Positions 20,462-20,715 of a stretch of 34,486 bases of DNA are shown here, piece by piece. How positions within the stretch are numbered: position 1 is the first letter of the stretch; every line of letters starts with the position of its first letter. Under the pieces are notes generated by a model, which had not been told where the DNA came from, did no database searches, and saw only the letters and a list, made by a program, of their open reading frames with translations. The stretch is from contig JAITPN010000096.1 of assembly GCA_031289415.1 (NCBI GenBank), positions 1-34,486 of the forward strand, written 5' to 3'. This DNA comes from Prevotellaceae bacterium. GTDB lineage: Bacteria > Bacteroidota > Bacteroidia > Bacteroidales > UBA932. Both the position numbers and the translations under genes were made by a program.

Positions 20462-20495
20462 TTTGTAAGATATTCAATTATTATTTTTACCTTTG
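20462..20495 (+). promoter_or_regulatory. Promoter-like element (TTTG, 22-nt spacer, TACCTTTG) upstream of small His-rich ORF and repeat region
   Basis: Same gtttgtaag...tacctttgc architecture as the rplC promoter. Confidence 0.4.
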
Positions 20496-20523
20496 CGCCA
20501 CTGAATTAAAATTAATAACTCTA

Positions 20524-20715
20524 ATGAGTTTTGTGCAAAACTTCTTGATAACTATTACGCCAATCCCTTGCATAGTAAGGGGAAAAGCCGTATCTTTGTA
20601 CCGCACACCGCACACCGCACACCGCACACCGCACACCGCACACCGCACACCGCACACCGCACACCGCACACCGCACACCGCACACCAGCACTCCTTATAC
20701 ACCTTATATATATAG
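20524..20715 (+). CDS. Speculative small ORF (63 aa) whose body is the heptamer microsatellite, giving (PHTAHRT)n His-rich repeats
   Basis: ATG about 30 nt downstream of promoter-like -7 box. Coding potential not otherwise supported. Could equally be a non-coding leader. Confidence 0.2.
   Translation: MSFVQNFLITITPIPCIVRGKAVSLYRTPHTAHRTPHTAHRTPHTAHRTPHTAHQHSLYTLYI
20601..20686 (+). repeat. Heptanucleotide microsatellite (CCGCACA)x12 plus partial unit
   Basis: Counted directly. 12 perfect tandem copies. Preceded by TATCTTTG (20591-20598). Confidence 0.95.

Follow-up and report, generated by a model that had tools for sequence, protein, structure and literature searches.

What does a long, perfect heptanucleotide repeat do between a ribosomal protein (r-protein) gene cluster and a surface lipoprotein gene in a member of the Bacteroidales? 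To our knowledge, invertible promoters and shufflons are held to account for nearly all phase variation in gut Bacteroidales, and switches driven by repeat slippage have hardly been documented. The stretch of DNA analyzed here, termed the window, spans 34,486 bp and makes up the whole of one contig, which belongs to the metagenome-assembled genome (MAG) of an uncultured organism labelled 'Prevotellaceae bacterium' at NCBI; the contig is also held at the Joint Genome Institute (JGI). It carries twelve copies of the heptamer CCGCACA inside a short predicted open reading frame (ORF), here called the leader ORF, which is followed by a six-unit array of 41-bp hairpins and then by a gene for a surface-type lipoprotein. 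We would class the locus as a putative simple sequence repeat (SSR) contingency locus that follows the leader-peptide attenuator design and is joined to a hairpin minisatellite element, in a member of the Bacteroidales. The account we favor, tentatively and at somewhat short of an even chance, is that of a translation-dependent slipped-strand switch of the lipoprotein, working like the leader-peptide attenuator of the pil1 operon of Streptococcus gallolyticus.

The tract comprises 12 perfect CCGCACA units at 20601-20684, followed by a CC that represents a partial thirteenth unit and explains the end point of 20686 given in an earlier annotation made from the letters of the window (the original prediction). 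Tandem Repeats Finder (TRF) delimited the tract at 20600-20691, with a period of 7, 13.0 copies, 98% matches, and a score of 175. Because it is the sole tract in the whole window with a unit of at least 4 nt and at least 4 perfect copies, it lies far beyond chance expectation, and it is a long perfect short-unit repeat of the kind by which SSR contingency loci are recognized. Its RNA is predicted to be unstructured (fold centroid 0 kcal/mol, z +0.97). The count of 12 rests on a single assembly, since the sole independent assembly of the source organism, a contig from Logan SRR14710897 (L001) that is 100% identical to the window, ends at 20560, 40 nt before the tract. Exact look-ups with L17 and with the lipoprotein led to this one other contig only.

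The -33/-7 promoter consensus of Bacteroides is well established, and as the two promoter-like elements at this locus (P1 and P2) were assigned on that basis, both are to be regarded as putative. The original prediction had described a TTTG-22 nt-TACCTTTG element about 30 nt upstream of a 63-aa ORF that reads the repeat as (PHTAHRT)n, together with a -7-like box TATCTTTG just 5' of the tract, the whole being located between an r-protein terminator and a surface lipoprotein gene. The motif scan, ORF list, and translation agree with this description: the leader ATG lies 28 nt past P1, P2 ends 2 nt before the tract, the repeat is read as (RTPHTAH)n, which equals (PHTAHRT)n, and the locus is bounded by the hairpin behind rplQ and by a lipoprotein gene whose product carries a BACON domain. 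P1 has GTTTGTAAG...TACCTTTGC in common with two identical 31-nt elements 5' of rplC (3799-3829) and rplP (9503-9533), and its -7 box is consistent with the residues YLC in the translation of P0250, an ORF call in the homologous module described below. For P2, the sequence TTGC at 20568 precedes the box by 19 nt, and the same octamer is found 22-28 nt 5' of two other genes of the window. TAnnTTTG occurs 39 times on both strands of the window versus approximately 22 times expected from mononucleotide shuffles. Between the 41-bp array and the lipoprotein ATG there is no full TAnnTTTG box, the nearest being TAAATTTC at 21023-21030, 7 nt before the ATG.

To follow the end points of the leader ORF, the locus was rebuilt in silico with n = 8-16 CCGCACA units. 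As 7 cannot be divided by 3 without remainder, n mod 3 sets the frame in which the leader continues beyond the tract. At n = 0 mod 3, which includes the assembled n = 12, the leader stops at TAG TAA (20713-20718, the second in-frame stop, TAA, being at 20716-20718), approximately 30 nt before the array. At n = 1 mod 3, the leader ORF crosses the entire array to a stop codon at 21030-21032, which leaves 6 nt to the lipoprotein ATG, and at n = 2 mod 3 it continues in frame into the lipoprotein ORF, the predicted fusion being 861 aa long at n = 11. What allows frames to cross the array is that neither the heptamer nor the 41-bp unit contains a stop codon on the forward strand, whichever frame is read; the assembled array is likewise free of stop codons in all three forward frames, and the short unique spacers are open in frames 0 and 2. 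When the spacers were shuffled and the real array was kept, both alternative frames stayed open as far as the gene start in 3.3% of trials, and a shuffled 41-bp unit of the same composition was stop-free in 14.5% of trials; these probabilities were computed post hoc and amount to modest evidence only. That gain or loss of a unit frameshifts the ORF, as the original prediction had it, is thus confirmed by the simulation, in which a one-unit change moves the leader among three end points, and from these end points we infer an effect on the lipoprotein. A point absent from that prediction is that two of the three leader frames continue across the array as far as the start of the lipoprotein gene, and this is more suggestive of a translation-dependent mechanism than of a simple knockout of the ORF.

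The array itself is predicted to be highly structured. Each unit forms an imperfect hairpin, GGGGA...CCGGAAnTTCCGG...TCCCC, and the fold of 20600-21060 has a predicted energy of -176.6 kcal/mol (z -8.3), nearly all of it from the array, with a single unit and its flank accounting for about -23 kcal/mol. Three of the units match a hairpin-plus-T-run terminator pattern, with TTTATT after the hairpin. In silico, the assembled leader stop is located upstream of a stable stem-loop and the other frames extend into or past it, which is the arrangement that characterizes pil1. A search of Rfam 15 returned no match at gathering score in the window, and 20336-21100 yielded only sub-threshold, hairpin-like microRNA matches (E >= 0.01). 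The idea that the array represents clustered regularly interspaced short palindromic repeats (CRISPR) was rejected, as the units are not separated by spacers.

In pil1, numbers of GCAGA repeats that place the leader out of frame lengthen the leader peptide, and ribosomes then disrupt a premature terminator (Danne et al. 2014, PMC3894217). The likeness to the window extends to the promoter, the short leader ORF holding a repeat with a unit length not divisible by 3 (22 x GCAGA in pil1, 12 x CCGCACA here), the in-frame leader stop before a stable stem-loop (39 bp in pil1, about 30 nt here), the extension of the leader through that structure at out-of-frame repeat numbers, and a downstream gene that specifies a surface structure. 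It is because promoter, leader repeat, stop approximately 30 nt before a stable structure, and alternative open frames match pil1 so closely that a slipped-strand attenuator is favored. The two systems also differ: pil1 belongs to a member of the Firmicutes and has a pentamer and a single terminator, whereas the window belongs to the Bacteroidota and has a heptamer and a 250-nt array of six hairpin units. In the window, and not in pil1, one frame joins the downstream ORF while another ends 6 nt short of its ATG, and the attenuator of the window is a prediction from sequence.

As envisaged here, the promoter, the leader ORF with its slippage-prone heptamer, and the 41-bp hairpin array would form a composite leader element in front of the lipoprotein gene. 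Gain or loss of units through slippage would shift the leader among short, array-crossing, and fused outcomes, and ribosomes crossing the array would melt its hairpins, thereby relieving termination or polarity or else coupling leader translation to the lipoprotein start. Repeat number would in this way set expression of the lipoprotein stochastically and heritably. Of the slipped-strand switch suggested in the original prediction, the switch as such gains indirect support from the frame consequences, from the approximately 8 units in a homologous module, and from heptamers in ON/OFF positions in three other Bacteroidota genes, and its operation as a simple ORF knockout appears less likely. 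The companion suggestion that the repeat changes promoter-to-gene spacing is weak as far as promoter geometry is concerned, as the tract is downstream of both -7-like boxes; a length effect could act through the leader.

Other known systems share parts of this design. Heptamer repeats located ~100 bp upstream of hmw1A and hmw2A of Haemophilus influenzae modulate expression of these genes (Dawid et al. 1999, summarized in PMC2651432), and they comprise 13-38 copies of a 7-nt unit upstream of an adhesin/surface-protein gene and downstream of promoter elements. The window has this layout, with a 7-nt repeat between the -7-like boxes and the ATG at 21038 of a surface-protein gene. The differences are that the hmw repeats lie ~70-100 bp from the start codon, exert a graded effect on transcription, and come with no described leader ORF or hairpin array, whereas the tract of the window lies 353 nt upstream of the lipoprotein ATG. 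In neuO of Escherichia coli K1, a 5' heptanucleotide repeat puts the gene in the ON frame only at some values of n mod 3 (PMC13001214), which is the same three-phase logic. The neuO repeat is inside the regulated gene; in the window, by contrast, the tract is in a separate ORF, well before the lipoprotein's own start and signal peptide, and an in-gene repeat of this type is found not in the window but in L036, L073, and L107, three loci described below that have exactly the neuO layout. The array, in turn, recalls BrickBuilt, a minisatellite MITE (miniature inverted-repeat transposable element) found in Porphyromonas gingivalis with a 23-nt unit (Klein et al. 2015, PMC4596501), and palindromes of the repetitive extragenic palindrome (REP) and bacterial interspersed mosaic element (BIME) types, in being a spacer-less tandem minisatellite with a leader and a tail, intergenic near coding sequences and carrying promoter elements, in the Bacteroidales. 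The 41-nt unit of the window differs from BrickBuilt in length and has no sequence similarity to it, and the terminal inverted repeats are unconvincing, with only a weak match of 15 nt (73%) between 20445-20459 and 20999-21013. The heptamer tract and the leader ORF are without a described counterpart in BrickBuilt.

A homologous module came to light when the frame-2 translation of 20579-21412 was searched against a protein collection. The match, P0250 (238 aa, from a 12.9-kb contig at JGI), is an ORF call that runs across a homologous leader, repeat, and array. By tblastn it aligns with the window from 20476 on, including the region of the -7 box (NYY·YLC), and the N-terminal 26 aa of the leader peptides are identical at 20/26 positions (77%; MSFVQNFCITIAPNPCTIKGKAVSLY versus MSFVQNFLITITPIPCIVRGKAVSLY). 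The heptads of P0250 correspond to about 8 heptamer units versus 12 in the window, and a 2-nt length difference is located at or beside the (TA)5 run. The array of P0250 has a 41-aa period, equal to 3 x 41 nt, and its unit could be rebuilt from the three reading frames as TGCTCTCGGAAGTTCCGGCGGACGAAAAAAGTCGTCGGATT, with 40/41 codons satisfied; as a control, the same back-translation applied to the array of the window recovered the true unit at 39/41 positions with 37/41 codons satisfied. The CCGGAAnTTCCGG palindrome is kept in the P0250 unit, a second palindrome is exchanged for a different potential stem, and no stop codon within the array interrupts the ORF that begins at the leader ATG. Another candidate, P0279 (L126-L128), had been considered as a decayed module and was rejected: the locus is unrelated and eukaryote-like, and its CCGAACA repeat is degenerate.

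A profile search combined with contig look-ups identified three more 41-bp arrays for which DNA is available, all from JGI sample 3300042636 (L129, L140, and L141). A representative unit is TCGGATTTCTTGCCGGAAGCTCCGGGAAAGTTTCCGACGCG, and the core of the array family is CCGGAAnnTCCGG. When 25 distinct units are compared, 84% of cells show the proposed hairpin pairing, versus 28-66% when the partner is slid; four pairs are changed on both sides, and these changes reflect only two or three independent events. All four arrays, including that of the window, are oriented with the downstream gene and are stop-free in three sense frames, and those of L129, L140, and L141 end 46-120 nt before its start codon. 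The genes behind them code for a membrane protein together with a TonB-dependent receptor, for a signal-peptide protein, and for a GH78 rhamnosidase of the lipoprotein type. Each of the three arrays is enclosed by a conserved leader and a conserved tail, and an ATG within the conserved leader ATGGTTTTAAGCAAA, which resembles ATGAGTTTTGTGCAAA of the window, opens an array-spanning ORF whose stop is at -17, -10, or +7 nt when counted from the downstream ATG. The context of the leader ATG in the window likewise resembles that of the leader ATG in L129 and L141. The heptamer is absent from L129, L140, and L141. Additional ORF calls with other 41-aa periods (P0280, P0282, and P0286) suggest a wider superfamily of arrays. 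In viral contigs, the array motif gave only single matches at chance level and the heptamer only trivial 3-copy matches. A more far-reaching proposal, which we regard as rather doubtful, is that the Bacteroidales possess a hitherto undescribed family of translatable 41-bp hairpin minisatellites that precede exported-protein genes and carry a leader ORF ending at the start codon, and that in the window a hypermutable heptamer has converted one of them into a three-state stochastic switch, the states being a short leader, a coupled leader, and a fusion.

The heptamer also occurs by itself in other genomes. A scan for (CCGCACA)3 in one genome per species returned at least 119 stretches; the window's own genome is not among the matches listed, in which copy numbers ranged from n = 3 to 41, and most had 3-4 copies and came from high-GC Actinobacteria. 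Also among the matches listed are three Bacteroidota MAGs (L036, L073, and L107) in which a sense-strand tract lies 10-13 nt past an ATG and before a signal-peptide-like stretch, and these look like translational switches of the neuO type. From these contexts and that of L013, CCGCACA tracts appear to occupy switch-like positions in Bacteroidota. L013, from a Bacteroidales MAG, has (CCGCACA)9 at 1170-1232 between divergently oriented genes; the tract ends 9 nt before a TAAATTTG box that precedes a truA-like gene, and it occupies the -33 position relative to this box. Of a different kind are L059, L060, and L068, from the MAG CBDHHR01 labelled 'Metamycoplasmataceae', where arrays of up to 41 units mix CCGCACA with CCACACA, CAGCACA, and CCGCGCA variants at 46% GC. 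These resemble satellite DNA and may have entered the MAG as contaminating host sequence.

The genes on either side place the module in a block that is specific to its lineage, because synteny with relatives ends at about 20409, at the terminator of rplQ, the final gene of the r-protein/rpoA cluster. The blastn similarity of L002-L004 to the window ends at 20208-20409, and relatives whose L17 is 77-90% identical have, after rplQ, an enolase gene or a minus-strand gene instead; as they carry different genes at this position, no orthologous spacer is available for comparison. The repeat, the array, and the lipoprotein gene thus form one such block. The lipoprotein has a signal peptide, MITSKTNKLMTAAVALLLVVASC (…LLLVVASC), with the lipobox VASC, followed by a BACON domain, five Listeria-Bacteroides (InlB B-repeat) domains, and a C-terminal region of ~220 aa to which no domain was assigned; its product name at NCBI is 'InlB B-repeat-containing protein [Prevotellaceae bacterium]'. 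Gene callers disagree on its start, which IMG places at ATG 20786 inside the array (776 aa) and NCBI/PGAP at ATG 21038. The IMG call, which would make the array coding sequence of the lipoprotein, was rejected, as a canonical lipoprotein signal peptide begins at ATG 21038. The five InlB B-repeat domains correspond to a 216-bp DNA repeat (4.2 copies, 82% identity) at 21421-22320, a likely site of recombinational length variation and assembly breaks. A paralogous lipoprotein, P0242 (483 aa, on a 21,006-nt contig with the same organism label), carries more than one BACON domain (several in all) behind a near-identical signal peptide, MITRKTNKLMMAAAALLLMPASC. In L124, from another, AT-rich organism, a homologous lipoprotein gene of the BACON/InlB-repeat kind has no CCGCACA tract or 41-bp array upstream, and its flanks contain other short tandem repeats: ATAAGTT x4, a 14-nt unit x2.9, and a 22-nt unit x4.9 (313-339, 462-554, and 2059-2165). 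On the other side of the module, the 3' end of rplQ holds a perfect 15-bp repeat (x2.3; AAGAGGCGACACCGC, 20298-20331) that encodes a repeated EATPQ tail on L17, and the length of this C-terminal extension varies among relatives. Farther upstream, the r-protein cluster is interrupted by a minus-strand phosphofructokinase gene (8145-9125), and a promoter-like segment of ~70 nt, with the identical 31-nt TTTG…TACCTTTG element, is duplicated 5' of rplC and rplP (3740-3835 and 9480-9540). The features of the locus and of the related loci are collected in Table 1.

Table 1. Coordinates of the heptamer module, its neighbors in the window, and related arrays and tracts on other contigs (the latter numbered on their own contigs).
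Feature	Position	Strand	Basis and remarks
rplQ (L17), final gene of r-protein/rpoA cluster	19775-20335	+	Pfam Ribosomal_L17, E 5.8e-37
Terminator-like hairpin after rplQ	20359-20400	+	Inverted repeat, 18-nt arms, 83% complementary
P1: TTTG-22 nt-TACCTTTG, Bacteroidetes-type promoter-like element	20462-20495	+	Motif scan; putative function
Leader ORF, 63 codons as assembled, holding the heptamer tract	20524-20715	+	ORF list, translation; predicted
P2: -7-like box TATCTTTG	20591-20598	+	Motif scan; within leader ORF; putative function
(CCGCACA)12 + CC	20601-20686	+	TRF, repeat scan; RNA 57% C, 14% G, no U, unstructured
(TA)5 run	20705-20714	+	Leader-ORF stop codon at its end
41-bp tandem array, six units	20744-20994	+	TRF period 41, 6.0 copies, score 310; repeat analysis
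A/U-rich tail, from array to lipoprotein start	20995-21037	+	Unstructured; frame-0 stop 21030-21032, frame-1 stop 21022-21024
Surface-type lipoprotein gene, 692 aa, MDR3236685.1	21038-23116	+	Pfam, translation
Related spacer-less 41-bp array, L129	561-988		Unit architecture as in window
Related spacer-less 41-bp array, L140	1510-1903		Unit architecture as in window
Related spacer-less 41-bp array, L141	4050-4406		Unit architecture as in window
CCGCACA tract, L036 (Saprospiraceae)	2576-2603		n = 4, out of frame
CCGCACA tract, L073		minus	n = 8, out of frame
CCGCACA tract, L107 (Saprospiraceae)		minus	n = 7, in frame with a 1275-aa, metalloprotease-like protein with a type IX secretion system (T9SS) sorting domain

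Several explanations compete with a translation-dependent switch. The tract might instead act at the level of the transcript, its length tuning mRNA in a graded manner and without leader translation, for example as a Rho-loading site on transcripts from P2. Rho utilization (rut) sites are C-rich, G-poor, and unstructured RNA, properties matched by the RNA of the tract, and as the tract begins directly past the -7-like box of P2, transcripts from P2 would start inside it. The heptamers ~100 bp upstream of hmw1A and hmw2A provide a precedent (PMC2651432). Even so, we judge such a rheostat to be improbable: P2 is itself a putative promoter, the tract lies much farther from the start codon than in hmw, and the model leaves unexplained both the open alternative frames across the array and the leader-initiated spanning ORFs of the related arrays. 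A different possibility is that the region at 20.45-21.04 kb is a repeat-rich, possibly mobile element resembling BrickBuilt, in which the heptamer tract, though variable in length, is a neutral by-product and the lipoprotein has its own promoter. The lineage-specific position directly past the synteny break, the occurrence of the homologous module in a different upstream context, the related arrays with conserved leader and tail like the P. gingivalis MITE, and the L124 lipoprotein that lacks the module are all in line with such an element. On the other hand, all four arrays with DNA have the same orientation directly upstream of exported or membrane protein genes, no full -7 box lies between array and ATG, a perfect 12-unit tract together with its frame relations would be an unlikely coincidence, and in other Bacteroidota this heptamer has a position clearly suited to ON/OFF switching. 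We consider the neutral explanation unlikely, though with some claim to be kept in view. Short-read assemblers often fail at tandem repeats, and the tract could be collapsed, expanded, or chimeric, a concern prompted by its origin in a MAG contig and by the independent Logan contig that breaks off 40 nt short of it. Against this, the tract is only 84 bp, below typical read length, the same contig is present at both NCBI and JGI, and the junction residues VSLY-RTPHTAH recur in the homologous module on a separate contig, so that an artefact or miscount appears very improbable. Finally, the original prediction raised the idea of a His-rich leader, and sensing of charged-tRNA supply by a His/Thr/Pro-rich peptide, as in his or trp attenuation, would be suggested by the two His codons in each heptad of (RTPHTAH)n and by the stable hairpins that follow. 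This idea found no support, as the gene downstream codes for a BACON/InlB-repeat lipoprotein and does not belong to an amino-acid biosynthesis operon; in addition, the composition of the peptide follows automatically from the DNA repeat and no alternative antiterminator pairing was identified, and we regard amino-acid sensing as scarcely credible.

The translation-dependent switch has to be weighed, in turn, against several observations that count in the opposite direction. Taken individually, the hairpins are weak as terminators (-8.5 kcal/mol, z -0.38). The A/U-rich, unstructured region at the lipoprotein start could initiate by itself; TAAATTTC, a 7/8 match, could moreover supply a weak local promoter 5' of the gene. 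The six amino-acid changes that separate the 26 leader codons of the window from those of P0250 fit non-coding drift equally well, and P0250 represents a different locus, not an allele, with a unit count and hairpins that derive from back-translation. As the related arrays were reached via ORF calls, the sample is biased with respect to their open frames. Metagenome scans with the core of the 41-bp array and with the left flank of the tract gave 0 matches, and as the source is a MAG assembly, the copy number of the tract may be inexact.

At a practical level, the locus illustrates how gene callers disagree and short-read assemblies break at sequences of this type. It also provides patterns that can be mined: CCGCACA tracts just past the start codons of secreted-protein genes in Bacteroidota, and 41-bp hairpin arrays before exported-protein genes. 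On the three-state proposal, SSR-based phase variation would occur in an order otherwise known for invertase-driven switches. If the attenuator reading is true, switching by leader-peptide attenuation, so far described for a single pilus operon of a Gram-positive species, would extend to a distant phylum, one without Shine-Dalgarno-driven initiation. Should the locus work as proposed, it would constitute a second, recombinase-free route to surface diversification in the Bacteroidales.

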